Source: Desulfotomaculum sp. (GTDB lineage Bacteria > Bacillota > Desulfotomaculia > Desulfotomaculales > Desulfohalotomaculaceae). From it: a stretch of 64,000 bases of DNA. Location: NCBI GenBank assembly GCA_017656165.1, contig JACDOL010000002.1, forward strand, positions 700 through 64,699, written 5' to 3'. Positions 3,389 through 61,160 of the stretch are shown here, one piece after another (position 1 is the stretch's first letter; each line of letters begins with the position of its first letter). Made by a program: the position numbers and the translations under genes. The notes beneath the pieces were generated by a model. That model saw only the letters and a program-made list of their open reading frames with translations, was not told the DNA's origin and made no database searches.

Positions 3389-3409
3389 ACGCAGCCAAGG
3401 TATTTACAA
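3389..3409 (+). repeat. Intergenic repeat family, copy 1 (truncated core ACGCAGCCAAGGTATTTACAA)
   Basis: The 17-nt GCAGCCAAGGTATTTAC matches copy 24331-24347 exactly and differs by one deleted T from copy 54328-54343. The 14-nt GCCAAGGTATTTAC also occurs at 30337 and 61067. Confidence 0.55.
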
Positions 3410-3489
3410 CTTCTATTTATCTCCAGCAGGGAACTAGAAGCAGTAGCAGAACTGTTAAAGCATAGAATAAATTGAAAGGACGGTAAAAG

Positions 3490-5073
3490 TTGAAGACGCT
3501 TCGGTATAGGATACAATTTAATGACAGGGTAGGTATAGTACTGGATGTTTCCAAGGCAGTATCATTAAAAAATATTAATATTATTTCCCTCCAAGTTCTG
3601 CCGAACAATATGTACCTGGAAATTGAAGCTGTACCTGAAAAACACTCCCAACTGCTGGAAAAGGAACTTGCTCAAATACCCGAGGTAAATACAGTAGAAA
3701 AAATTGATTTAATGCCTCACGAGGAAAGGGAACAAAAAGTTAAAGCTGTACTGGATTCAGTTAGTGAAGGTATTATTGCAATAGATAAAAAAGGTTATAT
3801 AACCACTTTTAATCCGGCCTGTGAAAAAATACTTCGCTATTCTGCTGAGGAAGTAATGGGCCGCCATGTAAGTGAAATACTTTCCAAAAACCTGCCAATG
3901 CTGAAGGCTCTTCAGGACGGCAGACCCTATGATAATAAAGAAATGATTTTATCTACATCCCGAGGGCGGCATCATTACTTAACCACGGGAAGACCAATTA
4001 TGGATGCACAAAGGCGTATTCTGGGTGTGGTAGCAGCTATTAAGGACATGTCTCAGGTAAGAGAACTTGTCTATTCTATTACTCAACCTTCTATGATTAC
4101 CTTTGACGATATTATGTACGGAAGTAAGGAAATGGCTCATGTAGTTGAATTGGCTAAAAAGGTGGCCTTAAGTAATACTACAGTAATGATTAGAGGTGAA
4201 AGCGGCACCGGTAAAGAACTGTTTGCCAGGTCAATTCACATGGCAAGTCCCCGGCGGGAAAAACCTTTTGTACCTTTAAATTGTGCTGCCCTGCCGGAGT
4301 CCCTGTTAGAAAGTGAGCTGTTTGGTTATGCAGATGGTGCCTTTACCGGGGCAAAAAAGGGCGGTAAGCAGGGGTTGTTTGAATTTGCCAATGATGGAAC
4401 ACTGTTTTTGGATGAGATTGGGGAACTATCCCCACACCTTCAGGCTAAACTCCTGCGGGTACTGCAGGATGGTAAAGTAAGACGCATTGGCGGCAGCAGT
4501 GAAATTTCTGTTAATGTAAGAATAATTGCGGCTACAAACCGCAACTTAGAAGAAATGATGCAGCGTGGAGACTTCCGGGAGGATCTTTACTATCGCTTAA
4601 ATGTATTCCCTATATCCATTCCACCGTTGAGGGAAAGACCTGAAGATATTCCCCTGTTGGCCCAGCACCTGGTAGAAAAATTTGCCCGCCGCATGGGCAA
4701 AAGAGTAACCGGTATCAGCAGCGGGGCCATGGAGAAACTTCTTAAAAATAAATGGGCCGGTAATGTTCGTGAGTTGGAAAACGTTATTGAACGGGCAATA
4801 AACCTGGTCGATGGCGAAACAATCCTTCCTGAACATATAATCTTGGATCATACAAGCAGGTCGCCGGCTGTGTACGAGCAGAAGGAGAACTTCAGCTTGG
4901 ATAATGTTTCAACTTTAAAAGAAGCAGTGGCTGCGGCAGAACAAAAAGCTTTAAAAGATGCACTTCAACGTTACGGTACAATTCGGCAGGCTGCTAAGGC
5001 CCTGGGAGTATCTCATACCACAGTGCTGAATAAAATAAAAAAATACAATTTGATTAACCCTGGAGATAGATAA
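3490..5073 (+). CDS. Sigma-54-dependent transcriptional activator with ACT and PAS sensor domains and a C-terminal Fis-type HTH
   Basis: ACT-like N-terminus and a PAS region are present. The AAA+ core carries GESGTGKE (Walker A), the GAFTGA loop and ELFLDEIGEL-like Walker B. The C-terminal HTH reads AAKALGVSHTTVLNKIKKY. Confidence 0.85.
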   Translation: MKTLRYRIQFNDRVGIVLDVSKAVSLKNINIISLQVLPNNMYLEIEAVPEKHSQLLEKELAQIPEVNTVEKIDLMPHEEREQKVKAVLDSVSEGIIAIDKKGYITTFNPACEKILRYSAEEVMGRHVSEILSKNLPMLKALQDGRPYDNKEMILSTSRGRHHYLTTGRPIMDAQRRILGVVAAIKDMSQVRELVYSITQPSMITFDDIMYGSKEMAHVVELAKKVALSNTTVMIRGESGTGKELFARSIHMASPRREKPFVPLNCAALPESLLESELFGYADGAFTGAKKGGKQGLFEFANDGTLFLDEIGELSPHLQAKLLRVLQDGKVRRIGGSSEISVNVRIIAATNRNLEEMMQRGDFREDLYYRLNVFPISIPPLRERPEDIPLLAQHLVEKFARRMGKRVTGISSGAMEKLLKNKWAGNVRELENVIERAINLVDGETILPEHIILDHTSRSPAVYEQKENFSLDNVSTLKEAVAAAEQKALKDALQRYGTIRQAAKALGVSHTTVLNKIKKYNLINPGDR

Positions 5074-5148
5074 CTGCTGCTGAACCCGTTAATAAAAATA
5101 ATGGCATTTCAACTCCTCTTGGCATAAAATGTTCTGAGGTGGTATACC

Positions 5149-6048
5149 GTGCAGCAGAAGAAAAAAATAGGTCTAGCACTGGGGGGGGGCTTTTTAAGAG
5201 GTGCGGCGCACATAGGGGTTTTAAAGGTGCTGGAAAGAGAAAAGCTTGAGCCGGATATTATTGCCGGTACCAGTGCCGGGAGTATTATAGCTGCCCTGTA
5301 TGCTGCAGGTTGGAATACAAAAAAGATTGAAAAACTGGCCCTTTCGCTTAAATTTAAGGATGTATATGATACGTGGTCAGCACTGCTTAACCTGCTATTA
5401 ATAATGGGAGATATGCTGGGCAATTTTTTAAAATTTTCCTGGCCCTGCAAACCACCCCTGGGGTTAATGAAAGGAAAAAATCTAGAAAAATTTTTGGCAC
5501 ACCAACTTAGAGACAGTGAATTTACCAACCTGAAGATGACACTGGCCATTACGGCTGTAGATATTAACTGCGGGTCAAAGGTGATCTTTTTACGAGAGAC
5601 TTTAAGAGCAGTAGGGGGACCCGATGAGGTTTATCTATATAATATTCCGGTGGCAGATGCGGTACGAGCCAGTACAGCGGTGCCGGGACTCTTTGAACCG
5701 AAAGAAATTAAAGGATACCAGCTGACTGACGGTGGTTTAAGGGAGCAGGTGCCGGCGGAGGTGCTTTATAAAATGGGAGCCGATGCTATACTGGCAGTGG
5801 ATGTAGGTTACGATGGTGATTCATGCACCAGGGTGAACAGCATTGCGCATTTATTAATGCAGACACTGGATATTATTCGCCACGATGCAATCAGCAGGGA
5901 ATTAAAACAATATGCCGACTTGGTGATTGCCCCCCTGATAAAGGACATGGGACCGCTGGATTTTCATCGAATACCTTATGCAATTTCCCAGGGAGAGGCT
6001 GCTGCCAGGGAAATGCTGCCGGAAATTAAAAAACTTTTTCAACAATAA
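5149..6048 (+). CDS. Patatin-like phospholipase family protein
   Basis: GGGxxRG oxyanion motif (GGGFLRGAAHIG), GxSxG nucleophile (GTSAGS) and a DGG motif (LTDGG). Confidence 0.8.
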   Translation: MQQKKKIGLALGGGFLRGAAHIGVLKVLEREKLEPDIIAGTSAGSIIAALYAAGWNTKKIEKLALSLKFKDVYDTWSALLNLLLIMGDMLGNFLKFSWPCKPPLGLMKGKNLEKFLAHQLRDSEFTNLKMTLAITAVDINCGSKVIFLRETLRAVGGPDEVYLYNIPVADAVRASTAVPGLFEPKEIKGYQLTDGGLREQVPAEVLYKMGADAILAVDVGYDGDSCTRVNSIAHLLMQTLDIIRHDAISRELKQYADLVIAPLIKDMGPLDFHRIPYAISQGEAAAREMLPEIKKLFQQ

Positions 6049-6053
6049 TTTAG

Positions 6054-6084
6054 AACCTGCTTAATCTTTTGCAGGTTTTTTTTA
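6054..6084 (+). terminator. Rho-independent terminator after the patatin gene
   Basis: AACCTGC ... GCAGGTT stem followed by a T-tract. Confidence 0.7.
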
Positions 6085-6170
6085 TGCTTTTATAACGGGT
6101 TCTAACTTTTTTACAATATTGATATGTTATAATTGAACAAGCAGTGAAAAAATGACAGGGGAGATTGTAA

Positions 6171-6776
6171 ATGGATATACTGTTATTTATTTTATTTGGT
6201 TACGCTGTTTATAAATTTGCAGCTTTAAGGAAAGAAAACCAGAAATTAAAACTGGCAGCTGAAAACCTGCAAAAGCAGAACAAAATTATGAGGGGGAAAA
6301 CAGAAGATTTACACAAAGATTTGTTTAAAAAGCAGCTTATGAGTTCGGCAGTTACAGGTGCCGCAGGTGGTTTGGCTGCTATGCTTTTAATTAACCAAAT
6401 TCAAAAGCATAACGACCTTGACCAGGAAACAGTTGAAAGCATGCAGAACATGGATTTAGATGAAATCCGGCAGTTTGCAGTGGAAAATAATTTAGCGGAC
6501 CAGCAGGAAATTGATAATTTGATAAACCAGATGCAGGACCCCTATCAGAATCCTGGCATGGATATAATTGTAGATGAGTATTATCACGGGTTGGACCGGG
6601 GACTGGGGTATGTTAACCCTGAACACCTGGATAATCATGATTTTGATAGTGATTATGATGTAAATAATGATTTTGGTATGGACCATGACTTTGATTTAAA
6701 CAATGACCTCAGCAGTTTAGATAATAGTTTAGATAATAGTTTTGGCGGTTTTAATGACGGCATGAGTAACTTTTGA
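6171..6776 (+). CDS. Hypothetical membrane-anchored protein with a coiled-coil region and a very acidic Asp/Asn-rich tail
   Basis: ATG preceded by GGGGAG. N-terminal hydrophobic helix and low-complexity D/N-rich C-terminal half with short internal repeats (LDNS LDNS, DHDFD). I recognise no family. Confidence 0.55.
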   Translation: MDILLFILFGYAVYKFAALRKENQKLKLAAENLQKQNKIMRGKTEDLHKDLFKKQLMSSAVTGAAGGLAAMLLINQIQKHNDLDQETVESMQNMDLDEIRQFAVENNLADQQEIDNLINQMQDPYQNPGMDIIVDEYYHGLDRGLGYVNPEHLDNHDFDSDYDVNNDFGMDHDFDLNNDLSSLDNSLDNSFGGFNDGMSNF

Positions 6777-6783
6777 TTAAGGG

Positions 6784-7695
6784 ATGTCTAAATTGAAAAG
6801 AGTAGTCAGCGTCAGCCTGGGATCTGCAAGAAGAGATCAGCAGATTAAACTGGAGTTATTGGGTGAAACAGTACTTATTGAAAGATTGGGAACAGACGGT
6901 TCCATAGATGAAGCTGAAAAGCTGCTAAAAAAGCTGGACGGTCAGGTTGATGTTTTAGCTCTTGGGGGTGTTAATATTCACCTGCAGGTTGGCAGCAGGT
7001 TGTATCCACTGAGGGATGGGCAAAGGCTGGCCAGGGCTGTGCGTAATACACCAGTTGTTGATGGCAGCGGAATTAAAAACACAGTAGAACCTCAAACAGT
7101 AATAGATTTGCAGAAACGTTACGGCTGGCCTCAAAAAGGACAAAGAGTGTTAATGGTATCCGCATTAGACCGGTGGTGCCTGGCGGAAGCACTGGCTGGC
7201 GCTGGATGCAGGTTAATAATAGGTGATGCAGTATTTGCTTTAAGTATTCCAATGCCTTTTTATTCCTTGAAAACATTTGCCCTGGCTGCTAGATTAACGC
7301 TTCCGCTGTTAGCAAAGTTACCTATCAAAGCCCTTTACCCTCTGGGGAAAAAACAAGAAACATCCCATTCCCGTTGGGAAAGAATATATGAGCAGGCTGA
7401 CATTATTGCTGGTGACTTTCATTTTATCCGGCGGCATATGCCCGCATCGTTACCGGGGAAAAATATAATTACCAGTACTGTAACCAGGGAAGACAGAGAA
7501 TTTTTGCGCCGGAGGGGAATAAAATACTTGGTCACAACCTGTCCCAACCTGCAGGGTCGTTCCTTTGGAGCCAATATCCTGGAGGCAGTTTGTGTGGCAC
7601 TTTTAAAAAAGCCTTTTTCAGAAATCAAACCTCATATGTTCCTGCCAATGATGAAAAAAATTGAATGGCAGCCTTCTGTAGAAAAATTAAATTAA
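6784..7695 (+). CDS. Conserved hypothetical protein (family not recognised with certainty)
   Basis: Long ORF with coding-like composition, tightly packed after the preceding gene. Confidence 0.6.
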   Translation: MSKLKRVVSVSLGSARRDQQIKLELLGETVLIERLGTDGSIDEAEKLLKKLDGQVDVLALGGVNIHLQVGSRLYPLRDGQRLARAVRNTPVVDGSGIKNTVEPQTVIDLQKRYGWPQKGQRVLMVSALDRWCLAEALAGAGCRLIIGDAVFALSIPMPFYSLKTFALAARLTLPLLAKLPIKALYPLGKKQETSHSRWERIYEQADIIAGDFHFIRRHMPASLPGKNIITSTVTREDREFLRRRGIKYLVTTCPNLQGRSFGANILEAVCVALLKKPFSEIKPHMFLPMMKKIEWQPSVEKLN

Positions 7696-7718
7696 ACTGC
7701 AAAAATTTAATAGGGGGA

Positions 7719-8528
7719 ATGCGGTTGCTTATTGATTATCATTTACATACTGCTCGCTGCGGTCATGCCAGCGGCACAATGGATCAGTACATTGATGCTG
7801 CCCGCCAGCGGGGTATAACTGAGCTGGGTTTTGCTGACCATATACCTATGTACTGGCTTCCGCCAGAGAAAAGAGATCCTGAAATAGCAATGCAGGAGGA
7901 AGAACTGGGGGAATACATACAGGAAGTCTGTTTCCTGCAGAAGCTCAACCCGGACTTGGGCATAAGATTAGGTTTGGAAGTGGACTACATTCCCGGCTGT
8001 GAGGCTGCTGCAAACAAAATAATTTCTGAACTGCCGCTGGACTACGTCCTGGGATCTGTACATTACCTCGGAGAGTGGGGATTTGACAACCCCCTTTATG
8101 TAGAAAAATATAATGATTACGATTTGTTTGAACTGTATATGCAGTACTTTGATACCCTCTGCGGGGCGGCAAAGAGCGGAATGTTTGACATTATTGCTCA
8201 CCCTGACTTGATTAAAAAGTTCAACCACCGGCCGCAGGATGAGCTGACACCACTGTACAAGAAGGTGGCCTATGTTTTTGCGGATTCCGGGGTATGTGTA
8301 GAAGTAAACACCGCTGGGCTGCGAGTGCCTGCCCGGGAAATATACCCGGCAAAAAAAATGCTGTCACTTCTATGTAAATATGGTGTGCCGGTTACCATGG
8401 GCTCAGATGCTCACCACCCAAATCAGGTGGGGAGAGGATTAAAAAAAGCACTGGAATTAATTAAAGAGGTGGGGTACAAAGAAGTTGCAGTTTTTCAAAA
8501 TAGAAAAAGAATTTTCTATAAGCTATAG
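7719..8528 (+). CDS. Histidinol-phosphatase, HisJ family (PHP domain)
   Basis: IDYHLHTxxCGHA N-terminal PHP motif and a later GSDAHHP motif. The ORF-track start at 7665 overlaps the previous gene. ATG 7719 or TTG 7725, after AGGGGGA, is more likely. Confidence 0.75.
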   Translation: MRLLIDYHLHTARCGHASGTMDQYIDAARQRGITELGFADHIPMYWLPPEKRDPEIAMQEEELGEYIQEVCFLQKLNPDLGIRLGLEVDYIPGCEAAANKIISELPLDYVLGSVHYLGEWGFDNPLYVEKYNDYDLFELYMQYFDTLCGAAKSGMFDIIAHPDLIKKFNHRPQDELTPLYKKVAYVFADSGVCVEVNTAGLRVPAREIYPAKKMLSLLCKYGVPVTMGSDAHHPNQVGRGLKKALELIKEVGYKEVAVFQNRKRIFYKL

Positions 8529-8604
8529 GATCAATCCTAACTATTTAGGAATTTGGTCCTATTTTTTTTCTTTTTCTTCCAGTTGTGGGAGGATTTTTAT
8601 TTGT

Positions 8605-8643
8605 AATGTGGAATTTAAAGTGGTGTAAAGTGGGGGAAAGTGG
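8605..8643 (+). promoter_or_regulatory. Candidate MraZ operator: direct AAAGTGG repeats upstream of mraZ
   Basis: AAAGTGG-tgt-AAAGTGG-ggg-AAAGTGG lies at 8617-8643, giving three perfect 7-mers with 3-nt spacers. A related AATGTGG lies at 8605-8611. Confidence 0.6.
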
Positions 8644-8675
8644 TACAAATTATCCCCCTGGTGGGGTGGCTGGGC

Positions 8676-9104
8676 ATGTTCATGGGGGAATACTCGCATA
8701 CTATTGATGCCAAAGGAAGATTAATAATTCCTGCCCGCTTCCGCGAAGGCTTGGGAGACCGCTTTATTGTTACTAAGGGGTTGGATAACTGTCTTTTTGT
8801 CTACCCACAGCATGAATGGGCTTCTTTAGAACAGAAACTCAAGTCACTCCCATTTACAAGAGCAGATGCCCGAGCCTTCGTCAGGTTTTTCTTTTCCGGT
8901 GCCAATGAGTGCGAGCTGGATAAACAAGGACGGATATTAATTCCTGCCAATTTACGTGAATATGCCCAGTTATCCAAGGAAGTTATTGTTTTAGGGGTAT
9001 CATCCCGGGTAGAAATATGGGCTAAGGAACGTTGGGATGAATACAATGCTTCTGCAGAGGAAAACTTTGAAGAAATAGCAGAAAAGATTGTAGACCTGCT
9101 TTAA
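8676..9104 (+). CDS. mraZ: Transcriptional regulator MraZ
   Basis: MFMGEYxHxIDxKGR N-terminus and two SpoVT/AbrB-like halves. It is the first gene of the dcw cluster. The start is moved to ATG 8676 because the 8640 start overlaps the operator repeats. Confidence 0.9.
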
Positions 9105-9163
9105 GTGTAGAAATAAAAGCAGTATTAGTTTTTTTAAAAAACCCGGGGACAGGTGGAATAGGA

Positions 9164-10102
9164 ATGGAATTTTATCATATACCGGTGCTGCTGGAAGAAG
9201 TAATGGAAGGATTAAATTTAAAAACTGGCGGTATATATGTAGATTGTACATTGGGAGGAGGGGGTCATACTGCCGAAATACTCAGACGAACTGCTCCTAA
9301 TGGCAAAGTAATAGGTATTGACCAGGATCCTCACGCTTTGAAAGCAGCAGAGCGGAAGCTAAAGGAATTCAGCAGCCGGTTAATAACGGTAAAATCTAAC
9401 TTTATAAAACTATCTGCGGTACTGGAAAATTTGGGTATTTATGGTATTGATGGGATATTATTTGATTTAGGAGTGTCGTCACCTCAATTAGATAACCCCG
9501 AGCGAGGCTTTTCTTATATGCATGATGCTTTCTTGGATATGCGCATGGATCCTAATAACCCGCTGACCGCGCAAAAATTAGTAAATGAACTTTCCGCTGA
9601 TGAGCTTACCCGTATTATTAAAGATTATGGTGAAGAAAAATGGGCTGCTAGAATAGCCCGTTATATTGTTAAAGAACGTGAAAAAAGGGCCATTAAAACT
9701 ACTTTTGAACTGGTGGAGATAATTAAAAAAGCTATTCCAGCTGCTGCCAGGCGTTCTGGGCCGCACCCGGCTAAACGTACTTTCCAGGCATTACGAATTG
9801 CGGTAAATAATGAGCTAAACATTTTACGTGATGCCTTTACCCAGGCTGTGGAAGCTTTAAAGCCTGGCGGAAGATTATGTGTAATAACCTTCCATTCGTT
9901 AGAGGACCGTATTACCAAAAATTTATTTAAAGAACTGGCCAAAGATTGTATTTGTCCCCCAGAACTGCCTGTCTGCCAATGCAGTACAAAAAGTAAAATT
10001 AAAATCGTCACTAGGAAACCCATTACAGCTTCTGAACGTGAACTGGTGCAGAATCCCAGGGCCCGCAGTGCAAAATTGCGTGTTGCCGAAAAAAATGGTT
10101 AG
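9164..10102 (+). CDS. rsmH: 16S rRNA (cytosine1402-N4)-methyltransferase RsmH
   Basis: YHIPVLLxEV and DCTLGGGGH motifs, positioned after mraZ. Confidence 0.92.
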
Positions 10103-10132
10103 GTTCTAAACCGCTGGGAGTGTGAATAAATT

Positions 10133-10675
10133 TTGTTATTAGCAAGGGAAAAACTGGAATACGGTGCACCATATGAAAGTGTGCCAGAAAAACAAAAACT
10201 TAATGAGAAAAGACAAAGCCGGACCAGGGTATCGCGGCAGGCAATTGTACGGAAAAAGGTAACCCTGACTTTTATGGTTTTGTGCTGCTTTGTAATGGGC
10301 ATTATGGTGGCTTATTACTATGCTCAAATTGCTTATTTGGGCTATAAAATTGATTCTCTGGAGCGAAGATTGGCAGAATTAAGGCTGGAAAGCCACAGTT
10401 TAGATCAAAAAGTAAGTAAAATAACATCTTTGCAATATATCGAGGCCATTGCCACCAGTGAATTGGGGATGGTTAAACCCAGTGGCAGAAATGTGGTATT
10501 GGTATCAAATTCTCCGGTGGAAGAAGAGAATACAGAACGGGCACCGGCAGATGATGAAAGGCAGTTGGCGCAAAAAGAAACCATTACGCTGCCGGGAGAA
10601 ACACAAACGGACGAATCATCCAGGAATAGATTCATTCAAGCTTTTGCCGAAATGGTAGAAAATTGGCATTCCTAG
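10133..10675 (+). CDS. ftsL: Cell division protein FtsL-like (septum formation initiator family)
   Basis: Basic N-terminus, a single TM helix, then a coiled coil, in the conserved position between rsmH and the class B PBP. The TTG start is uncertain. Confidence 0.6.
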   Translation: MLLAREKLEYGAPYESVPEKQKLNEKRQSRTRVSRQAIVRKKVTLTFMVLCCFVMGIMVAYYYAQIAYLGYKIDSLERRLAELRLESHSLDQKVSKITSLQYIEAIATSELGMVKPSGRNVVLVSNSPVEEENTERAPADDERQLAQKETITLPGETQTDESSRNRFIQAFAEMVENWHS

Positions 10676-10723
10676 AAGCTTGTTTTATGGACCAACCGGT
10701 GGCAGGGCCGATAGGAGGTAGAA

Positions 10724-12856
10724 ATGAGAAATACGAATATAGTTATCCGCAAGCGGATTGCCCTGCTGTTTGTCCTGGCTGTAACTATAATGTTTCTTTT
10801 GATAATAAGGATTGCATATATTCAATTTGTCCGTGGAGATGAGCTTAGTAAAAAAGCAGCTACTTACCGAATGAGAGAAGTGCCGGTTGAGGCTAAGCGG
10901 GGAACCATTTATGACCGTAATATGAATGAATTGGTAACCAGTATTAGTTCGGATTCCATATATGCCATACCCTCCCATGTTAAGGATAAGGAAGGTACCG
11001 CCAAAAAGCTGGCTGAAATTTTAAATATGGATGAAGAAGATATATTAAAAAAATTGAAGCGGAAAAGTTCATTTGAGTGGATAAAAAGAAAAATTGACTG
11101 GGATACTGCCCAAAAAATTAAAGCTCTTAAATTGAATGGGATAGGGTTTGCGGAAGAAAGTAAGCGGTTTTATAAACAGGGAGCACTAGCTCCCCATATA
11201 CTTGGTTTTACCGGAGTTGATAACCAGGGACTAATAGGAATTGAAAAAACTTTTGATGACCAGCTTAAAGGTGTTCCCGGGCAGATAATGGTGGAATATG
11301 ATGCTGCCGGCAGGGAAATTCCTCATGCCATGCATGAATATATATCTCCGCAGCAGGGAAATAACTTGGTGCTGACCATAGACCAAACTATACAATATTT
11401 TGTAGAACGGGAACTGGATAAAATTGTTGATAAGTATAATCCTACCAATGCAGTAATTATAGTTATGGATCCCAAAACCGGGGAGATTTTAGCCATGGGA
11501 AATCGCCCCACTTTTAATCCCAACAACTGGCAGGATTACCGTTCATCGATCTGGGACCGCAACCCTTCCATCTGGTACAATTATGAACCTGGCTCAACGT
11601 TTAAAATTATTACTGCAGCAGCAGCTTTAGAAGAAAATGTAGTAGAAATGGATGAACACTTTTACTGCCCGGGTTACATAAAAGTGGCAGATAGACGTAT
11701 TCACTGCTGGAAGCATGGCGGTCACGGCAGCGAAACTTTCGTGGAAGTGGTTCAAAATTCTTGTAACTCTGGATTTATAGAGGTTGGGCTTGACCTAGGC
11801 AAGGAAAAATTTTACAAGTATATAAAGGCTTTTGGGTTTGGTCAGTTAACTAATATAGAACTACCTGGTGAAGCCAGGGGAATTGTTATTAATGAAAAAG
11901 ATGCTACAAATCTTAACCTTGCTACCATGGCCATGGGTCAATCCATTGCTGTCACCCCTATCCAGTTAATTACAGCCGTATCGGCAGCGGTAAATGGTGG
12001 GCATTTATTAAAGCCCTACTTGGTAAAGGAAATAAGAGACAGTGAAAATAAGGTGGTTAAAGAATTTAAGCCCCAAAAAGTCCGGCAGGTAATTTCTGAG
12101 GATACATCGCAGCGGCTGCGCAAGCTTTTAGAGAGAGTTGTTTTATACGGTACCGGTAAAAATGCCTACGTTGAAGGCTATCCTGCAGGAGGGAAAACCG
12201 GTACAGCCCAAGTTGTGGGCAGCAGCGGGGGATATGTAAGCGGTAAATATGTGGCATCTTTTGCGGGCTTTGCTCCGGTTGATGACCCCCGTATTGCGGT
12301 ACTAATTATGATTAGGGAGCCCAAGGGCGGTGTTTATTTTGGTGGGCAGGTAGCTGCACCTGTTTTTGCCCCCCTGGCCAGAGACATTCTGCGTTACATG
12401 GGGGTTCCAGAGAAAAGAGACATGGAACGACCGAAGAAACCATTTGAGATACCCAAACAGGTGATGGAAGTTGAAGTTCCCAATGTTGTTAATTTACCGC
12501 TGAGCGAAGCACAAAAGGAACTTCGTTCTGCAGGGTTAGCTTTTCAAGTTAAAGGAAACGGAAAAATGGTATACAGGCAGATTCCCGAAGAGGGGGCTGT
12601 AGTTGAAAGCGGAACAACAGTGCTTCTGGATACTACTCAACCTGCTGAACTGCAGGATGGCAAGGTAACTATGCCTGATTTAACCGGGTGTACCATAAAA
12701 GAGGCTGGTATGCTGTTGGAAAGTATAGATCTGCATCTAGAAGCTTCCGGCAGTGGATTAGCAGCCAGCCAAAGTGTAAAGCCGGGAACAAAAGTAAGCA
12801 AAGGAACTACGGTTAAGGTAATATTTAAACCTCCGGGAAAAAGTAAGCAGCCATAA
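10724..12856 (+). CDS. Class B penicillin-binding protein (SpoVD/FtsI type) with two C-terminal PASTA domains
   Basis: TM anchor, PBP dimer domain, and transpeptidase motifs STFK, SCN and KTGT. Two PASTA repeats lie at the C-terminus. Strong RBS AGGAGG. Confidence 0.9.
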   Translation: MRNTNIVIRKRIALLFVLAVTIMFLLIIRIAYIQFVRGDELSKKAATYRMREVPVEAKRGTIYDRNMNELVTSISSDSIYAIPSHVKDKEGTAKKLAEILNMDEEDILKKLKRKSSFEWIKRKIDWDTAQKIKALKLNGIGFAEESKRFYKQGALAPHILGFTGVDNQGLIGIEKTFDDQLKGVPGQIMVEYDAAGREIPHAMHEYISPQQGNNLVLTIDQTIQYFVERELDKIVDKYNPTNAVIIVMDPKTGEILAMGNRPTFNPNNWQDYRSSIWDRNPSIWYNYEPGSTFKIITAAAALEENVVEMDEHFYCPGYIKVADRRIHCWKHGGHGSETFVEVVQNSCNSGFIEVGLDLGKEKFYKYIKAFGFGQLTNIELPGEARGIVINEKDATNLNLATMAMGQSIAVTPIQLITAVSAAVNGGHLLKPYLVKEIRDSENKVVKEFKPQKVRQVISEDTSQRLRKLLERVVLYGTGKNAYVEGYPAGGKTGTAQVVGSSGGYVSGKYVASFAGFAPVDDPRIAVLIMIREPKGGVYFGGQVAAPVFAPLARDILRYMGVPEKRDMERPKKPFEIPKQVMEVEVPNVVNLPLSEAQKELRSAGLAFQVKGNGKMVYRQIPEEGAVVESGTTVLLDTTQPAELQDGKVTMPDLTGCTIKEAGMLLESIDLHLEASGSGLAASQSVKPGTKVSKGTTVKVIFKPPGKSKQP

Positions 12857-12860
12857 ATAA

Positions 12861-12906
12861 AAACTCAGGTCCGCCGCAGGTTATCTGTGGCAACCTGAGT
12901 TTTTTA
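12861..12906 (+). terminator. Rho-independent terminator after the PBP gene
   Basis: AAAACTCAGGT ... ACCTGAGTTTTT long hairpin with a T-tract. Confidence 0.7.
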
Positions 12907-13037
12907 AAGAAAATGTAATGATTTTTAAGAGTAATGGCTTAAAACAGGCTTTTATGATAAAATGTTTATTTAGATTAATAAACTTCAAATATTTGGTAAA
13001 ATTATATTAATATAAAATATTAAAGGAGGAGCTGTTT

Positions 13038-14498
13038 TTGCTTTTTAGCGAGCTTATAAAAGAATTAAGTGTAAGTAAGATAAAAGGTGACTTGAATATC
13101 CCCGTAAAAGGGATTGCTTACGATTCCAGAAAAGTTCAACCGGGGTATGTTTTTGTGGCTGTTCCAGGTTTTGTCACAGACGGCCACAGGTATATTAACA
13201 ATGCTGTAGAAAAAGGTGCTTCAGCACTTATAGTGGAAAAGGAAGTGGATGCCCCGGGGATAACAACCGTTCAGGTAAGAGACAGCCGCCTGGCATTAGC
13301 CCAGGTATCAAATAAATTTTACGATTATCCTTCAAAAAAATTAACCCTTACTGGTGTAACCGGCACAAATGGAAAGACTACTACTACGCACCTGGTGGCT
13401 AACATTTATAAAGCTGCAGGTTATAAAACTGGCCTGGTGGGGACAATTCAAAACCTTATTGGCGGCAAAGAAGTCAACGCATCCAGAACTACACCCGAGT
13501 CCCTGGAACTTCAGCGGCTGCTTGCAGAAATGGTTAACAGTGGGGTTACTCATGCGGCCATGGAAGTATCTTCTCATGCCCTGGCCCTTAACAGAACTTA
13601 TGGTGTTGATTTTGATGCGGCCATATTTACCAATCTTTCCCAGGACCATTTGGACTTTCACCATGATATGGATGATTATGCAGCAGCCAAGGCCAAACTC
13701 TTTGCAGCTGCGCCATTATCCGTGGTAAATACTGATGATGAACGGGGGCAGGACATGGTTCAAGCCAGCCGCGGGGACGTTGTTACTTACGGTCTGCATA
13801 AACCTGCTGATGTCAGTGCCAGGGACGTAAGTATAACTGCCAGGGGAGTGTCCTTTGTCACAACTGGGAAATACGGCGAACATTTGCTAAATTTAAATTT
13901 AACTGGTGAGTTTAATGTTTATAATGCCCTGGCTGCCTTTACACTGGGGATGGCCCAGGGGTTTGACCCGGAAACGGTAAAAATGGCCCTGGAAGGTGTG
14001 CAGGGGGTAGCAGGCCGTTTTGAGCTGGTGGACTGCGGCCAGCCTTTTGCAGTGGTGGTGGATTATGCCCACACGCCTGACGGGTTGGAAAATATATTAA
14101 AGACAGCTAGGCAGCTTGCAGATAACCGTCTTATTGCTGTATTTGGCTGCGGCGGCGACAGAGACCGTACTAAGAGGCCGATAATGGGCAAAATAGGCTC
14201 AAGCTTGAGTGATGTGGCAGTTATAACCTCTGATAATCCCCGTACCGAGGACCCGCAGAAAATAATTAACGACATACTGGAAGGATTAAAGTCAGGCGGG
14301 GAAAAAAATTATACTGTAATACCGGATCGAAAAGAAGCCATAGCCTATGCCATTAAAAAAGCTGCACCAGGAGACGTGGTAGTGATAGCAGGTAAAGGGC
14401 ATGAAACATATCAAATTATTGGAAACATAAAATATGACTTTGATGACCGGGCTGTAGCTGCGGAAGTATTAAAAGAGCTGGGCTATGATAAGTCCTAG
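13038..14498 (+). CDS. murE: UDP-N-acetylmuramoyl-L-alanyl-D-glutamate--2,6-diaminopimelate ligase MurE
   Basis: GVTGTNGKTTT P-loop and a DNPR motif (SDNPRTEDP), which indicates meso-DAP specificity. Confidence 0.92.
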   Translation: MLFSELIKELSVSKIKGDLNIPVKGIAYDSRKVQPGYVFVAVPGFVTDGHRYINNAVEKGASALIVEKEVDAPGITTVQVRDSRLALAQVSNKFYDYPSKKLTLTGVTGTNGKTTTTHLVANIYKAAGYKTGLVGTIQNLIGGKEVNASRTTPESLELQRLLAEMVNSGVTHAAMEVSSHALALNRTYGVDFDAAIFTNLSQDHLDFHHDMDDYAAAKAKLFAAAPLSVVNTDDERGQDMVQASRGDVVTYGLHKPADVSARDVSITARGVSFVTTGKYGEHLLNLNLTGEFNVYNALAAFTLGMAQGFDPETVKMALEGVQGVAGRFELVDCGQPFAVVVDYAHTPDGLENILKTARQLADNRLIAVFGCGGDRDRTKRPIMGKIGSSLSDVAVITSDNPRTEDPQKIINDILEGLKSGGEKNYTVIPDRKEAIAYAIKKAAPGDVVVIAGKGHETYQIIGNIKYDFDDRAVAAEVLKELGYDKS

Positions 14499-14527
14499 TT
14501 TAAATGTTTCAAGTGCAGGTGTTATTT

Positions 14528-15907
14528 ATGAAAGAGCTTACTGTTGGCGAGATAGCTTCTATAGTTAATGGAGAGCTGATTCAGGGCAATCCAAGGCAGC
14601 CGGTAAAAGATGTTAGCACCGATACCAGGACTATAAAACCGGGCGATTTATTTTTTGCCCTGGCAGGGGAAAAGTATGATGGCCATGACTTTGTTGGGCA
14701 GGCAGTGGATGCTGGTGCTGGTGGTTTGGTGCTGGCCAGGGAAATACCAGAACTTAAGAACCAGGTACCGGTGATAATAGTACAGGATACTTTGAAGGCC
14801 CTGCAGCTGCTTGCTTCATATAACCGGCGCCAATTTGATATTCCCGTGATTGGAATTACCGGCAGCAACGGGAAAACCACAACTAAAGATTTAGTGGCAT
14901 CGGTGTTAAGCCAAAAATACCGGGTGTTAAAAACCAGGGGAAATTTAAACAATGAAATTGGCCTGCCCCTTACCCTGCTGCAGCTGGATGAGCATCATAC
15001 TGCTGCAGTGTTAGAAATGGGGATGCGAGGCCTTGGGCAGATAGATGAACTGTGCAGGATAGCCGGTATAACTGCAGGGGTAATAACCAACATCGGTGAG
15101 ACCCACTTGGAATTATTAGGTTCCGTGGAAAATATTGCTCAAGCAAAGGGAGAAATATTAAAAAATGTTCCTGCCGGGGGATTCGGGCTGGTCCCTGCTG
15201 ACAGTCCGCATGCAAAAGTACAGGCCCAAAAGTGTAAGGGTAAGGTTTACACCTTTGGGGTAAATTGTACGGCTGATTACACAGCCTGTGATGTGGAGCT
15301 TAAAGATAAAGGCAGCAGGTTTACAGCTGTCACTCCTGCAGGTAAAAAGATAGTTGAGTTTCCCGTCCCAGGCAGGCATAATATTTCCAATGCTATGGCT
15401 GCATTAGCGGTAGGTCTAAACCTTGGCCTTACACTGGAAGACTGCGTGGAAGGATTAGAGAAGGCTGAAATAACATCAATGAGGCTGCAGGTAATTACTG
15501 CTGGTGAAGTTACAATTATTAATGATACTTACAATGCCAATCCCGATTCTACTAAAGCTGCCCTGGATACTTTAAAAGACCTGGCCGGGGGTCGCCGGCA
15601 GGTTGCAGTACTGGGCAGTATGTTTGAACTGGGTTGGAGGGAAAAAGAGGGACACTATGAAACCGGAAAGGCAGCAGCGAAAGTTGATCTTTTAGTGGCA
15701 GTAGGAGAACTGGCCAAGAACATTGCCCAGGGTGCAGTGGATGCTGGTATGCTTCCACAACAGGTTCAGTGGTTTGCAGATAAACAATCGGCTGCCGAAT
15801 TTTTAAAGAAAGCTATTCTTCCCCGGGACGTGGTTCTGGTAAAAGGTTCCCGTGGGATGCGTATGGAAGAGCTGGTAGAGGTAATGAAGCAGGAGGTTAA
15901 GCAGTGA
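14528..15907 (+). CDS. murF: UDP-N-acetylmuramoyl-tripeptide--D-alanyl-D-alanine ligase MurF
   Basis: GITGSNGKTTTK P-loop and Mur ligase middle and C-terminal domains. ATG 14528 is preferred over the ORF-track start at 14504. Confidence 0.9.
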   Translation: MKELTVGEIASIVNGELIQGNPRQPVKDVSTDTRTIKPGDLFFALAGEKYDGHDFVGQAVDAGAGGLVLAREIPELKNQVPVIIVQDTLKALQLLASYNRRQFDIPVIGITGSNGKTTTKDLVASVLSQKYRVLKTRGNLNNEIGLPLTLLQLDEHHTAAVLEMGMRGLGQIDELCRIAGITAGVITNIGETHLELLGSVENIAQAKGEILKNVPAGGFGLVPADSPHAKVQAQKCKGKVYTFGVNCTADYTACDVELKDKGSRFTAVTPAGKKIVEFPVPGRHNISNAMAALAVGLNLGLTLEDCVEGLEKAEITSMRLQVITAGEVTIINDTYNANPDSTKAALDTLKDLAGGRRQVAVLGSMFELGWREKEGHYETGKAAAKVDLLVAVGELAKNIAQGAVDAGMLPQQVQWFADKQSAAEFLKKAILPRDVVLVKGSRGMRMEELVEVMKQEVKQ

Positions 15908-24271: not shown

Positions 24272-24302
24272 AAGCCTTGATGAGTTCAAGGCTTTATTTT
24301 TT
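24272..24302 (+). terminator. Rho-independent terminator after murA
   Basis: AGCCTTGA-tgag-TTCAAGGCT stem followed by TTTATTTTTT. Confidence 0.7.
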
Positions 24303-24311: not shown

Positions 24312-24372
24312 AGAAAGTACAAGTTTTGACGCAGCCAAGGTATTTACCGGAGAAACGATAACCGGCGAATTC
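24312..24372 (+). repeat. Intergenic repeat family, copy 2 (modules A+B)
   Basis: AGAAAGTACAAGTTTTGACGCAGCCAAGGTATTTACCGGAGAAACGATAACCGGCGAAT aligns almost base-for-base with 54309-54366. Confidence 0.75.
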
Positions 24373-24498
24373 AAAGAATATTACAAAATAATTTATTTAT
24401 AAATAGTATCATAAAACTGCTAATTACCCTTCGTTTTGCTTTAGACAAGCAGGTATATATTCAGTTATAATTATATTTACAGCAATACTTTTGAACGG

Positions 24499-25260
24499 AT
24501 GGTAAATAAGCAGGTGATAAAATTGACCGGAGTTAGACCACAGGGAAAAAGATCTAAACACAATTTTTTCCAAGGAATTTTTTTTGTATTATTAATTGCC
24601 TTGAGCGTTTATGTATTATTACAGTCACCGGTTTTTAATGTTAAAAAAATAGAAATAATTGGCAGGGAAAAGATTCCCAGGGAAAAAATAATTGAATTAT
24701 CAGGTGTAGTTTTAGGCAGCAACATATTTAAGCTTGACCTGCACAGCGGGGAGAAAAAAATAAGCCTGCTCCCAGCAGTTAAAAATGTTGAAATAACACG
24801 CAGGTTTCCTTCAACCATCGTTATTACGGTTACTGAAAGGAGACCGGTTGCTTTGCTTCCGGTGGAGGAAGGTTTTGCAGAACTGGACAGGGAAGGAATA
24901 TTTCTTAGAAAGGCAGAATTTATACAATCATCTTTTCCAGTAATTACAGGCGGTGATGTACCGGGAGTTAAACCCGGGCAGAAAGTAAGAAACAATGCGG
25001 TCATTACTGCTTTAACAGTAATTGATAAACTGCCAGCACAGTTAACAAAACAATTATCTGAAGTTCATGTTGATACTAAAAATGAAGTGACTATTTATAC
25101 AATTAATGGTATACAAGGAAGAATGGGAATGCCCGAAAATATCCGCCAGAAAGGCAGTGTTTTTCTCAAGGTACTGGAACAAATTGGAGAGGAACAAAAG
25201 ATAGAATATATAGATTTAACATCTTGTAAGTCACCTGTTGTTAAGTATGCAGAAAATTAA
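24499..25260 (+). CDS. ftsQ: Cell division protein FtsQ/DivIB (POTRA domain)
   Basis: Single TM helix followed by a POTRA-like segment (FNVKKIEIIGxxKIxxxxI). Its position is upstream of ftsA. Confidence 0.8.
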   Translation: MVNKQVIKLTGVRPQGKRSKHNFFQGIFFVLLIALSVYVLLQSPVFNVKKIEIIGREKIPREKIIELSGVVLGSNIFKLDLHSGEKKISLLPAVKNVEITRRFPSTIVITVTERRPVALLPVEEGFAELDREGIFLRKAEFIQSSFPVITGGDVPGVKPGQKVRNNAVITALTVIDKLPAQLTKQLSEVHVDTKNEVTIYTINGIQGRMGMPENIRQKGSVFLKVLEQIGEEQKIEYIDLTSCKSPVVKYAEN

Positions 25261-25277
25261 AGGGGGCAGACAGCATC

Positions 25278-38070: not shown

Positions 38071-38120
38071 AAAGAACAAAATCTTCGCACTTTTCAAAGC
38101 ATAATAATTAACTAAGAGAT

Positions 38121-38158
38121 AAAAAAACCCGGGGCATGCTTTCTGCCCCGGGTTTTTA
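38121..38158. terminator. Bidirectional terminator between nrdG and the convergent zinc-ribbon gene
   Basis: AAAAAAACCCGGGGCA-tgctttc-TGCCCCGGGTTTTT, with A- and T-tracts on either side. Confidence 0.75.
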
Positions 38159-38377: not shown

Positions 38378-38560
38378 AACAGGTTACCTCCTTTAGTCAT
38401 TATTAAAAATATCTGCTGTATAATCTAACAGCATAATTATAACATAAATATTTTTAACAAGTTACCTCAGCTTGATAATAGCTGTTTTTTTGTATGCTTA
38501 AGGTAGGTTTTTGCTGGTGAGTATGGAACAGTATATAAAAAGTTATGGGGGTGAATTTAT

Positions 38561-44739: not shown

Positions 44740-44774
44740 TTTTAAAAATAAATTACAGGTTAAATATGCTTTTG

Positions 44775-44807
44775 AAATCTGCCTTGAAAAGGCAGATTTT
44801 GTTTTTA
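44775..44807 (+). terminator. Rho-independent terminator after phoU
   Basis: AAATCTGCC-ttgaaaa-GGCAGATTT stem followed by TGTTTTT. Confidence 0.75.
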
Positions 44808-44812: not shown

Positions 44813-44857
44813 TTAGATAGTTTGAGTCATGGGCGGTAGTAAGTCCGAATGTTTTTT
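44813..44857 (+). repeat. Intergenic repeat family, degenerate copy (left edge TTAGATAG plus module D only)
   Basis: TTAGATAG matches the left edges at 53211 and 30323. GGCGGTAGTAAGTCCGAATGTTTTTT matches about 20 of 26 nt of module D at 54465-54490. Confidence 0.4.
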
Positions 44858-49949: not shown

Positions 49950-50210
49950 ATATTTTAAAGCCTGTGAACGGAAGAGTAGGTTGTGTTACCATGTTTCAGA
50001 GAGCCCGGGGGAGGTGGAAGCCGGGTACATGGCCGCAGTCGAAGATCATCCGGGAGGCGTACAGCTGAACACTCAATATTGTGGGTCAGTAGGCTGTACC
50101 GGTGGCACCGGCGTTAACGGTGTTAGAGTGATCAGGCTGAATATGCCTGTTCACAAGGGTGGTACCGCGGAGAAGAGTAATCCGTCCCTTGGGGGCGGTT
50201 TTTTTTATTT
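49950..50210 (+). promoter_or_regulatory. T-box leader (isoleucine specifier) with intrinsic terminator
   Basis: AGAGA and GGTGGAAG stem-I elements, an ATC specifier in GAAGATCATCC (50045-50050), the T-box sequence AAGGGTGGTACCGCGG (50155-50170), and the terminator CCGTCCC-ttg-GGGGCGG plus T8. Confidence 0.88.
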
Positions 50211-50227
50211 TACTTTCAGGAAGCATA

Positions 50228-50277
50228 ATTTTTGACTTAGTCAAGGTATTTACCGGAGAAAACGATAACCGCAAATT
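50228..50277 (+). repeat. Intergenic repeat family, copy 5 (module B) inside the ileS 5' UTR
   Basis: TTTTGACTTAGTCAAGGTATTTACCGGAGAAAACGATAACCGCAAAT aligns with 24325-24368 and 54321-54366. Confidence 0.7.
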
Positions 50278-53164: not shown

Positions 53165-53210
53165 TGCCCCGGGGAATGATTTTTGACACATCATTTCCCG
53201 GGGTTATTTG
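53165..53210 (+). terminator. Rho-independent terminator after ileS
   Basis: CCCCGGGGAATGAT ... ATCATTTCCCGGGG long stem followed by TTATTTGTT. Confidence 0.75.
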
Positions 53211-53211: not shown

Positions 53212-53307
53212 TAGATAGCAGCCAACCAATGTATTTACCGAAGAAAACGATAGCCGGTAGGGTTCGATTTATCAAACCTATCAGCCGGAGGGAAAGCGCC
53301 GAGTATA
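53212..53307 (+). repeat. Intergenic repeat family, copy 6 (modules B+C), left direct repeat of the SASP island
   Basis: GTATTTACCGAAGAAAACGATAGCCGG...GATTTATCAAACC...CAGCCGGAGGGAAAGCGCCGAGTAT aligns along about 95 nt with 54328-54418, with a few mismatches and two small indels. Confidence 0.8.
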
Positions 53308-53916: not shown

Positions 53917-54084
53917 TGTATCATCTCCATTGTGTTTTTTTAAAAAAACACCCGTAATATTATTAGTATTAAAAGCTAAAATATTATTAAAAAGTGCCTG
54001 TAAAATAAAGAATTTTTTTAGCAGGAAATTGAAAAAAGAAGAAGAATTCATCAAATTAAAAATATTTAATAACGGCTGAATGAA

Positions 54085-54300
54085 GGTAGCAGGAGAGGTC
54101 TGGGCTAACCGGGCGCCGAAGGAGCAAGGCTGTCTGCTGGCTGGGCAGCAGTCGAAACTCTCAGGCAAAATGACTGTTACCGGACAGAACTCTGGAGAGA
54201 TCCGTAGAGGACACCCACGGGGAAACCCTGGAAAATAGGGTAATCTCTCAGGTAAACGGACAGAGAAAACAGCATTTTTGGGTTTTCTCTGTCTTTTTTA
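54085..54300 (+). promoter_or_regulatory. Tandem glycine riboswitch with terminator expression platform
   Basis: Aptamer 1 is GGAGAG...CGCCGAAGGAGCAA...CTCTCAGGCAAAATGAC. Aptamer 2 is CTCTGGAGAG...CTCTCAGGTAAACGGACAGAG. The terminator is CAGAGAAAAC...GTTTTCTCTG plus a T-tract (54261-54299). It is upstream of gcvT. Confidence 0.88.
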
Positions 54301-54307: not shown

Positions 54308-54490
54308 AGAAAGTATAAGTTTTGATGCAGCCAAGGTTTTACCGGAGAAAACGATAGCCGGCAAATGTAGGGCTTTGATTTATCAAACCAACCAGCCGGA
54401 GGAAAAGCGCCGAGTATTGAGGAGCGAGGCGGCGTTTCACTATCCGAAAGTATAGTTTTAACCCAGCGGTGATAAGACCGGAGGTTTTTT
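54308..54490 (+). repeat. Intergenic repeat family, copy 7 (longest: modules A+B+C+A'+D), inside the gcvT 5' UTR
   Basis: It contains every module seen in the other copies. Module A is AGAAAGTATAAGTTTTGAT. Module B is GCAGCCAAGGTTTTACCGGAGAAAACGATAGCCGGCAAAT. Module C is GGGCTTTGATTTATCAAACC..CAGCCGGAGGAAAAGCGCCGAGTAT. A second A-like segment reads GAAAGTATAGTTTTAAC. Module D is AGCGGTGATAAGACCGGAGGTTTTTT. Confidence 0.8.
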
Positions 54491-59955: not shown

Positions 59956-60126
59956 CTGTGTGATTTGCTATCGCTGTGATTTTGAAATACCTACCAGTAT
60001 AATATACCAAAAAAACAGCATCTTTAGCTATAATAAGAGCACGCAATTTAATAATTATTGCCAATGAACCAATTGTTATGATAAATTGATTTTGTATTTA
60101 AATACGCAGTGCAGGCGGTGTCGTAA

Positions 60127-60456
60127 ATGGAGCTAATACTGTTTTTCTTGATACTGGGATTTGTTATTGGGCATTTCCGTTTACTGCCTACTGGTACAAA
60201 AATAACCCAACAAGTAATGGTGTTTGGTTTGATTTTTTTACTGCTGGTAATGGGAGCCCAGCTGGGTGCTAATAAAAAAGTGTTAGCCGATTTTGGCCGT
60301 ATGGGAATGCAGGCAGTGGCATTGGCTGCAGGTGGGGTAATATTCAGTGTTTTGTTTGTAAGAATGGTAGAGGGTTTTATTCGGCGGGGAATAGATAGCG
60401 ATGAATATAATATAAAAACAGTCAGCCAGGAAGAAAAGGTTGGTGAAGAGGGTTGA
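60127..60456 (+). CDS. LysO-family (DUF340) membrane protein, small subunit
   Basis: A 109-aa three-TM protein whose stop overlaps the start of the larger DUF340 gene, which is the typical paired arrangement. Confidence 0.7.
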   Translation: MELILFFLILGFVIGHFRLLPTGTKITQQVMVFGLIFLLLVMGAQLGANKKVLADFGRMGMQAVALAAGGVIFSVLFVRMVEGFIRRGIDSDEYNIKTVSQEEKVGEEG

Positions 60457-61049
60457 CCTGGATAATAATTATATCAGTGGCCGCCGGTATGCTTTTGGGA
60501 TACTGGGTAATTCCCCATGAACTGGTAGGCTGCCTGGATAAATTAACAACAGCTGCATTATGTGTTCTGCTTTTGGGAGTGGGGATAGAACTAGGACAGC
60601 AAAAGGAAGCCTGGGAAAGATTGTGGAAAGTAGGCTGGCGTGTTATTCTTGTACCGGTTATGGTTGCTTTGGGCAGCTTACTTGGGTCGTTGGTGGTAGG
60701 TGCTGCAATTGGTATGCCTGTAAATGAATCCCTGGCCGTTGGTGCAGGTTTTGGATGGTACAGTTTGTCTGGCGTGCTTCTAGCGAAAATTTACAGTGTA
60801 GAACTGGGAGCATTGGCATTTATAACCAATGTGGCCCGGGAATTAATGGCTTTCCTTTTAATTCCTGTTACTGCTAGGTACATAGGAAAATTTAGTGCCG
60901 TGGCTCCTGGTGGGGCAACAACTATGGATACCACACTCCCATTAGTCAGCAGGTCAACTGATGCTGACACGGCAGTTGTAGCCTTTATTAATGGTTCAAT
61001 TCTTTCATCCCTGGTACCAATACTGGTGCCGCTGTTAATTAAACTTTGA
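60453..61049 (+). CDS. Lysine exporter LysO-family (DUF340) membrane protein
   Basis: A polytopic protein with GWYSLSG and the GGATTMDTTLP motif of DUF340. Confidence 0.75.
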   Translation: MTWIIIISVAAGMLLGYWVIPHELVGCLDKLTTAALCVLLLGVGIELGQQKEAWERLWKVGWRVILVPVMVALGSLLGSLVVGAAIGMPVNESLAVGAGFGWYSLSGVLLAKIYSVELGALAFITNVARELMAFLLIPVTARYIGKFSAVAPGGATTMDTTLPLVSRSTDADTAVVAFINGSILSSLVPILVPLLIKL

Positions 61050-61064
61050 CCTCCAGTCTAATGA

Positions 61065-61160
61065 CCGCCAAGGTATTTACAATGTAAAAACACGCCGGCA
61101 CATATACCTGAACGAACTCCTCACCCTTCGGGTGCCTGCGTAAAAACTTATACTTTTTGA
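61065..61160 (+). repeat. Intergenic repeat family, copy 8 (truncated core plus inverted module A)
   Basis: CCGCCAAGGTATTTACAA lies at 61065-61082. CGTAAAAACTTATACTTT at 61139-61156 is the reverse complement of AAAGTATAAGTTTTTACG, which is module A as found at 54311-54328. Confidence 0.55.

Follow-up and report, generated by a model that had tools for sequence, protein, structure and literature searches.

The DNA analysed here is a 64,000-nt stretch (hereafter the window) of contig JACDOL010000002.1 from Desulfotomaculum sp. Its source organism is an uncultured relative of Desulfotomaculum, and its IleS is 100% identical to a protein that NCBI lists under 'MAG: Desulfotomaculum sp.'; the closest relatives by IleS identity are Desulfohalotomaculum tongense (85%) and the Bacillota metagenome-assembled genome (MAG) MES5 (84%). 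In the gaps after its genes sits a family of small repeats built from recurring sequence modules, which an earlier note, made from the letters alone, had picked out at eight intergenic loci. We find that each of these copies is a different deletion or truncation of one unit of about 190 nt, in which two inverted copies of the core GCCAAGGTATTTAC(CGGAGAAAAC) close a single long hairpin. The flanking genes and leaders are those that the note had named: FUR, MurA, SpoIIM, PhoU, the T-box and IleS, and the glycine riboswitch and GcvT.

The copies combine a left module, module B (the core and its extension), module C and a right-hand module D. The left module comes in two alternative forms, A (AGAAAGTAYAAGTTTTGAYGCRGCC) or TAGATArCAGC, the latter in copies 3, 4 and 6. 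The copies, and the two riboswitches that form the context of copies 5 and 7, are as follows.

3389-3409, + strand: copy 1, an ACGCAG junction and the B core only, truncated directly after TTTAC
24312-24372, + strand: copy 2, module A and module B, right-truncated
30322-30428, + strand: copy 3, alternative left module (TAGATAAC), B, a short interior, an inverted B core and D
44813-44857, + strand: copy 4, alternative left module (TTAGATAG) fused almost directly to D, with nearly all of the interior deleted
50219-50277, + strand: copy 5, a degenerate A and B, right-truncated
53212-53307, + strand: copy 6, alternative left module, B, a small palindrome (GGTTCGATTTATCAAACC) and C, right-truncated
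54308-54490, + strand: copy 7, A, B, the palindrome, C and a mid-section, then a second A-like module fused to D
61049-61160, - strand: copy 8, A, a deletion at a CGCAG microhomology, the right half of the interior, an inverted B core and D
49955-50192, + strand: T-box leader of ileS (Rfam RF00230, 122.9 bits), context of copy 5
54080-54265, + strand: tandem glycine riboswitch of the gcv operon (Rfam RF00504, 68.7 and 47.2 bits), context of copy 7

Two entries depart from the earlier description. Every B module had been placed on the + strand and copy 8 read as a truncated B plus an inverted A; it is a minus-strand element with the arrangement given above. Copy 5 does contain the B module reported for it, but it begins at about 50219 with a degenerate A and not at 50228.

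The family stands clearly above chance, and the eight loci with their shared modules hold up in shuffle controls. The core has eight matches at no more than 2 mismatches in the window against 0.77 expected, a count that none of 100 shuffles reached. The long B pattern TTTACCGRAGAAAN{2,3}RTARCCG matches five times and module C twice, with 0 expected in both cases, and module A four times against 0.74 expected. Module D matches eight times against 2.3 expected; four of these eight are family members, the D-like sequences lying at 30403, 44832, 54465 and, inverted, at 61055. A profile hidden Markov model (HMM) built from all copies had as its window hits the eight loci of the earlier note, no more and no fewer, with copy 4 detected by nhmmer at an E-value of 7.6e-5, and a repeat finder grouped the same loci together. 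When the 30 intergenic spacers of the window were compared all against all, no second repeat family emerged.

As had been claimed, all copies (8/8) lie outside coding regions; a further core match at 16624, with 2 mismatches, falls inside a coding open reading frame (ORF) and was discarded as chance. Six-frame translation found no ORF conserved between the copies, again in line with the earlier account, and Pfam annotation of the window proteins confirmed that no transposase is encoded there, nor any reverse transcriptase (RT).

The unit from which the copies derive was found in full length in the related MAG MES5 (L049:4622-4812, about 190 nt). This single element unites modules B and C with the copy 8 interior, the inverted core and D, in the order left arm (CAGCCATGGTATTTACCGGAGAAAAC), module C, a stretch like the copy 8 interior, right arm (GTGTTTTCGGAGTGTAAATGCCTTGG) and module D; it carries neither form of the left module. 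Its segments are 86-96% identical to the window copies, and over 77 nt copy 8 matches it at 85.7% identity. Folded as a whole, the element makes a single long hairpin (-74.4 kcal/mol, z -3.5), a stability that none of 200 shuffles equalled. Copy 3, whose arms are perfect over 14 nt (30337-30350 and 30392-30405), forms a hairpin of the same type (-44.5 kcal/mol, z -4.25). The stem arms of these two elements reach about 25 pairs, and A and D extend the complementarity imperfectly. The core itself is AT-rich (GGTATTTAC), and GTAG is present only in the left module of copy 3.

In a MAFFT alignment each window copy appears as a different deletion or truncation of this L049-type unit. Both ends are retained in copies 3, 4 and 8 and in the distal part of copy 7, and only the left part is left in copies 1, 2, 5 and 6. 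Most window copies are without one arm, so that the hairpin cannot form, and the folds of copies 7 and 8 do not stand out from those of shuffled sequences (z -1.7 and -1.2). The small palindrome (GGTTYGAT TT ATCAAACC) is nested in copies 6 (53260-53279) and 7 (54371-54390), with one distinct mismatch in each; it seems to have arisen secondarily, by insertion or expansion in the source lineage's version of the element, because the full-length MES5 copy is without it.

The MES5 element lies beside a bidirectional terminator, between two minus-strand genes, those of H+-PPase and of an HD-domain protein. A good sigma-A-like promoter match, TTAACA-17 nt-TATATT (L049:4575-4615), ends about 7 nt before it on the element's strand; this match may be chance in AT-rich DNA, or part of the divergent promoter region of the HD-domain gene.

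The family is multi-copy beyond the window. A ninth copy (A and B) lies 3.6 kb past it, directly after a terminator, and a Logan contig ends inside this copy; with it the density is 9 copies in 68 kb, or about 1 per 7 kb. Altogether, four Logan contigs from two runs have five of their ends inside the B modules of copies 2 and 3 and of the copy past the window. Contig SRR13776099_109 ends at 24353, within copy 2; contigs SRR13776099_2452 and SRR13776100_9477 begin at 24326, within the same copy; SRR13776100_9477 ends at 30408, within the right arm of copy 3; and contigs _2452 and _1974 share an end point inside the ninth copy. De Bruijn contigs break at k-mers that occur in other places too, and the window holds no second identical 31-mer for these break points; there must therefore be more copies elsewhere in the genome.

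The element is missing from the corresponding positions in the two relatives. We did not find it in five syntenic spacers of D. tongense (T-box to ileS, ileS 3', riboswitch to gcvT, phoU 3' and LysE/Rce1), nor in five of MES5 (T-box to ileS, ileS 3', phoU 3', murA 3' and spoIIM 3'), and the profile HMM had no match in 67 kb of syntenic DNA of the relatives. The distribution among relatives is patchy. Several of their spacers are shorter than those of the window, most clearly in the ileS and gcvT leaders, the ileS leader being shorter by about 100 nt. In the spoIIM-spoIIGA spacer of MES5 the flanks are conserved around 91 nt without significant similarity, against 150 nt in the window; a D-like stretch in that spacer was considered as a degraded orthologue of copy 3 and rejected, its alignment being no better than shuffles (52/300). 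The comparison of orthologous spacers that the earlier note had proposed thus shows the element missing in relatives, but no target-site duplications were seen. In the phoU spacer of D. tongense, an unrelated direct repeat of about 36 nt (GCCACCGGCTCAGCAGGATGACATTTTTCATGGTAG, L087:4345-4381 and 4420-4455, about 75 nt apart) occupies the position of window copy 4.

A second strain of the same species is present in sample SRR13776099, and comparison of its contigs (L097 and L098) with window positions 1-15073 and 24326-39395 gave 57 differences in 30.1 kb (0.19%). Copies 1 to 3 are common to both strains, with no presence/absence polymorphism seen; copy 1 and the covered part of copy 2 are identical between them. 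Copy 3 has four differences in its 107 nt (Poisson P 3e-4 with all DNA as the reference, and 0.013 with the rest of the compared intergenic DNA). Its arms are unchanged, and its interior varies faster than other intergenic DNA. The strain differences as a whole are very uneven: the first 15 kb has 8 of them, and the stretch between 24.3 and 39.4 kb (15 kb) has 49.

We could not find the family among described elements. Apart from the T-box and the two glycine aptamers, nothing in the window reached an Rfam gathering threshold; when matches up to E<=10 were allowed, copy 7 had none and the L049 region only weak ones to the neighbouring terminator hairpin, far below threshold. A scan of species-representative genomes with the long-B pattern, in a collection that evidently does not include the source genome, gave 70 loci, of which 69 were chance or coding and only L049 was real. 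All 14 loci of a metagenome scan were chance, as were the matches in two viral-contig scans, and blastn found no counterpart of the full-length element in plasmids or phages. The peptides from all six frames of the copies, joined as a chimeric query against a database of 5.8 billion proteins, returned nothing at E<=10, and a search for the core sequence in a library of papers returned nothing relevant. The view that the family is undescribed therefore stands against Rfam, the papers searched, plasmids, phages and viral contigs.

All eight window copies follow a terminator, with 8-31 nt from the hairpin end to the start of the element. Copy 1 begins 18 nt past the fur terminator hairpin (3356-3371), copy 2 16 nt past that of murA (24272-24296), copy 3 31 nt past that of the SpoIIM gene (30248-30291), copy 4 12 nt past the phoU terminator (44774-44801) and copy 6 8 nt past the ileS hairpin (53167-53203). 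The minus-strand copy 8 lies 12 nt past the minus-strand terminator (61196 to 61172) of an Rce1-like gene. The remaining two are inside leaders: copy 5 within that of ileS, between the T-box terminator (50182-50198) and the start codon, and copy 7 between the glycine-riboswitch terminator (54259-54293) and the gcvT start codon. The association thus takes in one copy more than the seven of eight claimed earlier, which had been placed within about 25 nt of the U-tract. The left end faces the terminator in 10 of 11 copies (p 0.012), the MES5 element being the one that turns its right end toward it. Nearly all window genes are on the + strand, and therefore only copy 8 and the MES5 element can separate an orientation by transcription from one by replication; those two disagree.

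An identical 16-nt T-tract (TTTTTTTTATTTTACT) follows both the fur terminator (3372-3387) and the T-box terminator (50199-50214), whose hairpins are different, and TTTTAC also follows the murA and phoU terminators. These shared sequences may be the left edge of the element, a target preference, or chance in T-rich DNA. Directly after ftsZ, at 29423-29452, lies a perfect 30-nt palindrome (AACAGGGGCTTGATTAATCAAGCCCCTGTT) with no T-run on the + strand and no repeat behind it; it is probably a bidirectional terminator-like hairpin.

[quoted passage not shown] The ancestral unit is about 190 nt long, with two inverted copies of CAGCCAAGGTATTTACCGGAGAAAAC closing a long stem and with A on the left and D on the right outside it. 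The gene for the protein that spread it would lie elsewhere in the genome, this protein being most likely a transposase recognising the inverted termini, and copies would persist where they are harmless, in the narrow interval that separates a terminator from the promoter or start codon that follows. Their decay would then come about by internal deletion, through hairpin slippage or between short direct repeats (CGCAG is one), and by truncation on one side; deletion and truncation of this kind would yield the module mosaic that the earlier note had described. We prefer a mobile, selfish element to a functional RNA because the inverted termini are long and both ends are kept after internal deletion, and also because the copies have no coding capacity and an unconserved interior, are absent from the relatives' spacers, are patchily distributed and are numerous enough to break assemblies. 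The earlier suggestion of a non-autonomous mobile element is in this respect favoured, but the homing to terminators that came with it is unproven.

Several observations weigh against this proposal. The window contains no partner element that carries a transposase. The 86-96% identity to the MES5 copy is found while other intergenic DNA of the two genomes is mostly unalignable, and it needs an active, conserved master copy, horizontal transfer, or a function. The 10/11 orientation bias is not explained by neutral retention alone, and the copies that keep only the left end (1, 2, 5 and 6) could not transpose by themselves. No direct repeat was seen by eye flanking copies 3, 4, 7 and 8 or the MES5 element, and the relatives are too distant to provide clean empty sites, so that ends and target duplications are not definable.

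Other routes of spread and one promoter assignment were considered and dropped. Retroposition resembling target-primed reverse transcription, for which a shared terminator-proximal end and distal truncation might speak, was set aside because the stretch between hairpin and element is variable and internally deleted copies keep both ends. An IS200/IS605-type element, with a TTAC-like target and no target-site duplication, is unsupported, as the family has long-range inverted termini instead of subterminal hairpins. Module A (TATAAG) was dropped as a promoter, there being no consistent -35 element.

The nearest competitor holds that the element is mobile and actively seeks out intrinsic terminators, with the hairpin and T-tract, as double- or single-stranded DNA, serving as its target and entry taking place in a fixed orientation. 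Such behaviour has precedents: class C group II introns target terminators, and some elements of the IS110, IS3 and IS5 families target repetitive extragenic palindromic (REP) sequences. For all 11 known copies, including those at L091:15141 and L049, a terminator hairpin is 8-31 nt away. The attenuator terminators of the T-box and of the glycine riboswitch are both occupied, as are about 8 of the 13-15 convincing intergenic terminators of the window; the minus-strand copy 8 sits behind a minus-strand terminator; and the same end points toward the terminator in 10 of 11 cases. The strength of the association depends on the space allowed to it, however. Under uniform placement between the hairpin and the next start codon Fisher's combined p is 0.016, and it rises to 0.11 or 0.59 once 40 or 80 nt are reserved for the promoter and ribosome-binding site of the next gene (the ileS hairpin end was placed 4 nt too far right in this test, which leaves the conclusion unaffected). 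The distance to the T-tract also varies, the MES5 element presents its opposite end, and there is no likeness to an intron 5' end or domain V, no RT, and no Rfam intron match at E<=10. The targeting of terminator hairpins in the manner of class C group II introns is thus not demonstrated, the adjacency being within what short spacers lead one to expect, and we regard active terminator seeking as possible but doubtful. For BOX, RUP and SPRITE, co-orientation with genes and enrichment downstream of them are known and have been attributed mainly to tolerated insertion sites (PMC3049150).

It is rather unlikely, in our judgement, that the family is a structured RNA used by the host, either as a 3'-end or leader hairpin (stabilising the transcript, backing up termination or insulating it) or as a multi-copy small RNA gene. 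The length and stability of the hairpin would suit such a role, as would its co-orientation with transcription, the presence of two copies inside the necessarily transcribed leaders of ileS and gcvT, the high identity between genomes, the resemblance of D to a weak hairpin followed by a T-run, and the promoter-like TTAACA-17-TATATT directly upstream of L049. The consensus fold of the three two-armed sequences speaks on both sides: its five one-sided changes are G-U wobbles on the + strand, but none of its 25 pairs is compensatory and two are broken, a count that rests on three sequences only. The idea of a structured RNA appended to transcripts, also raised in the earlier note, thereby receives no positive support. 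Moreover, most window copies are one-armed and copies 7 and 8 fold like shuffles; the majority sit behind terminators, where little transcription arrives; there is no consistent promoter and no Rfam match; and the interior of copy 3 changes faster than other intergenic DNA.

Equally improbable to us is a new kind of terminator-associated, transcription-oriented hairpin element, whether a non-intron mobile element that recognises terminators or a module that the host has recruited behind most of its terminators, attenuators among them, for instance as a termination fail-safe or for 3'-end protection. If real, it could explain the occupancy of about 60% of terminators, the 10/11 orientation and the 86-96% identity between genomes.

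Less credible still is a host site at the DNA level, in which the 14-nt core would be bound or recognised (by a nucleoid protein, by gyrase as at REP sequences, or in DNA uptake) and the other modules would be incidental. Gyrase does act at REP sequences, and pairs of DNA uptake sequences double as terminators. The core is the best conserved part and the sole survivor in copy 1, it occurs in inverted pairs, and its density is about 1 per 7 kb. Against this, the core with its B extension is absent from related species-representative genomes except for the one MES5 copy, which counts against a host site because one would expect relatives to have a conserved host system in common; the conservation spans about 190 nt and not a short site; and we know of no protein associated with this core.

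Local duplication, the artefact that the earlier note had allowed for, or chance resemblance limited to the window can be dismissed almost entirely as the source of the pattern: only the position of all window copies within one 58-kb stretch speaks for this reading, and it is contradicted by the shuffle controls, which exclude chance, by the copy in a second genome (MES5), by the extra copy past the window, and by assemblies of two independent runs that break inside B.

If the family is an ordinary interspersed repeat, as we propose, it is a new one for an uncultured Desulfotomaculia lineage, and it accounts for the fragmentation of short-read assemblies of the source organism at specific intergenic points. 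It also carries a warning for annotation, as about 100-180 nt between the T-box or the glycine riboswitch and the genes they precede are inserted repeat DNA and not leader. These two leader insertions are natural tests of how far a riboswitch-controlled 5' untranslated region tolerates a foreign hairpin. A wider bearing on the exploitation of terminators by mobile DNA or by cells would follow only if terminator homing or host use held true genome-wide.

Apart from the repeats, the window contains a fragmented splB gene (spore photoproduct lyase) on the minus strand at 33684-34717. Its ORF at 34214-34717 (167 aa) matches no more of the Pfam SPL profile (338 positions) than positions 1-157, and the remainder lies in short minus-strand ORFs (34066-34299, 33975-34073 and 33684-33833); the MES5 orthologue is a single gene of 342 aa. 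Both Logan assemblies call only a 164-aa product, and splB is for this reason probably a real pseudogene and not an assembly error.

Among known systems, class C group II introns share with the family a position directly downstream of intrinsic terminators and co-orientation with them. The family has none of their 5' (GUGYG) or 3' consensus, domain V/VI or RT ORF, however, and is palindromic and only about 190 nt long. The pneumococcal SPRITE elements are also enriched near gene 3' ends and oriented with genes (PMC3049150), but SPRITE is itself terminator-like, whereas the family described here stands behind a native terminator whose stem sequence is different at every site.

The likeness to REP sequences, BIMEs and REPINs is closer, as these too are palindromic, extragenic and placed at transcription-unit 3' ends, occur as mosaics and as inverted doublets that form long hairpins, and, at least for REP in E. 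coli, reach a density comparable to the 1 per 7 kb seen here. REP units are about 20-40 nt long, G+C-rich and tied to the REP-associated tyrosine transposase (RAYT), with a conserved GTAG; in the present family no consistent GTAG was seen, and only its TAGATA-type left modules hint at one. With MITEs such as Correia and RUP it has in common a length below 300 nt, the lack of coding capacity, a multi-copy and intergenic occurrence and a transcript or single strand that would form a hairpin (reviewed in PMC10969869), as well as terminal inverted repeats, here 14 nt when perfect and about 26-36 nt when imperfect. It differs from them in that no target-site duplication was seen, that many copies have lost one terminus, and that its parent insertion sequence (IS) is not known.

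The best architectural parallel is BOX of Streptococcus pneumoniae (boxA-boxB(n)-boxC), which is modular and intergenic, has end modules that pair and many partial copies, and carries no transposase of its own, a link to a cognate IS having been proposed (PMC3049150). Like BOX, the family consists of non-coding mosaic copies with a variable interior, a long hairpin formed by paired ends, and an orientation biased with respect to coding. The likeness is one of architecture only: there is no sequence similarity, the hosts belong to different classes of Firmicutes, and the interior of the present element is not tandemly repeated. The family itself is therefore new, but its kind is already known from the BOX, REP/BIME and MITE repeats of other bacteria.

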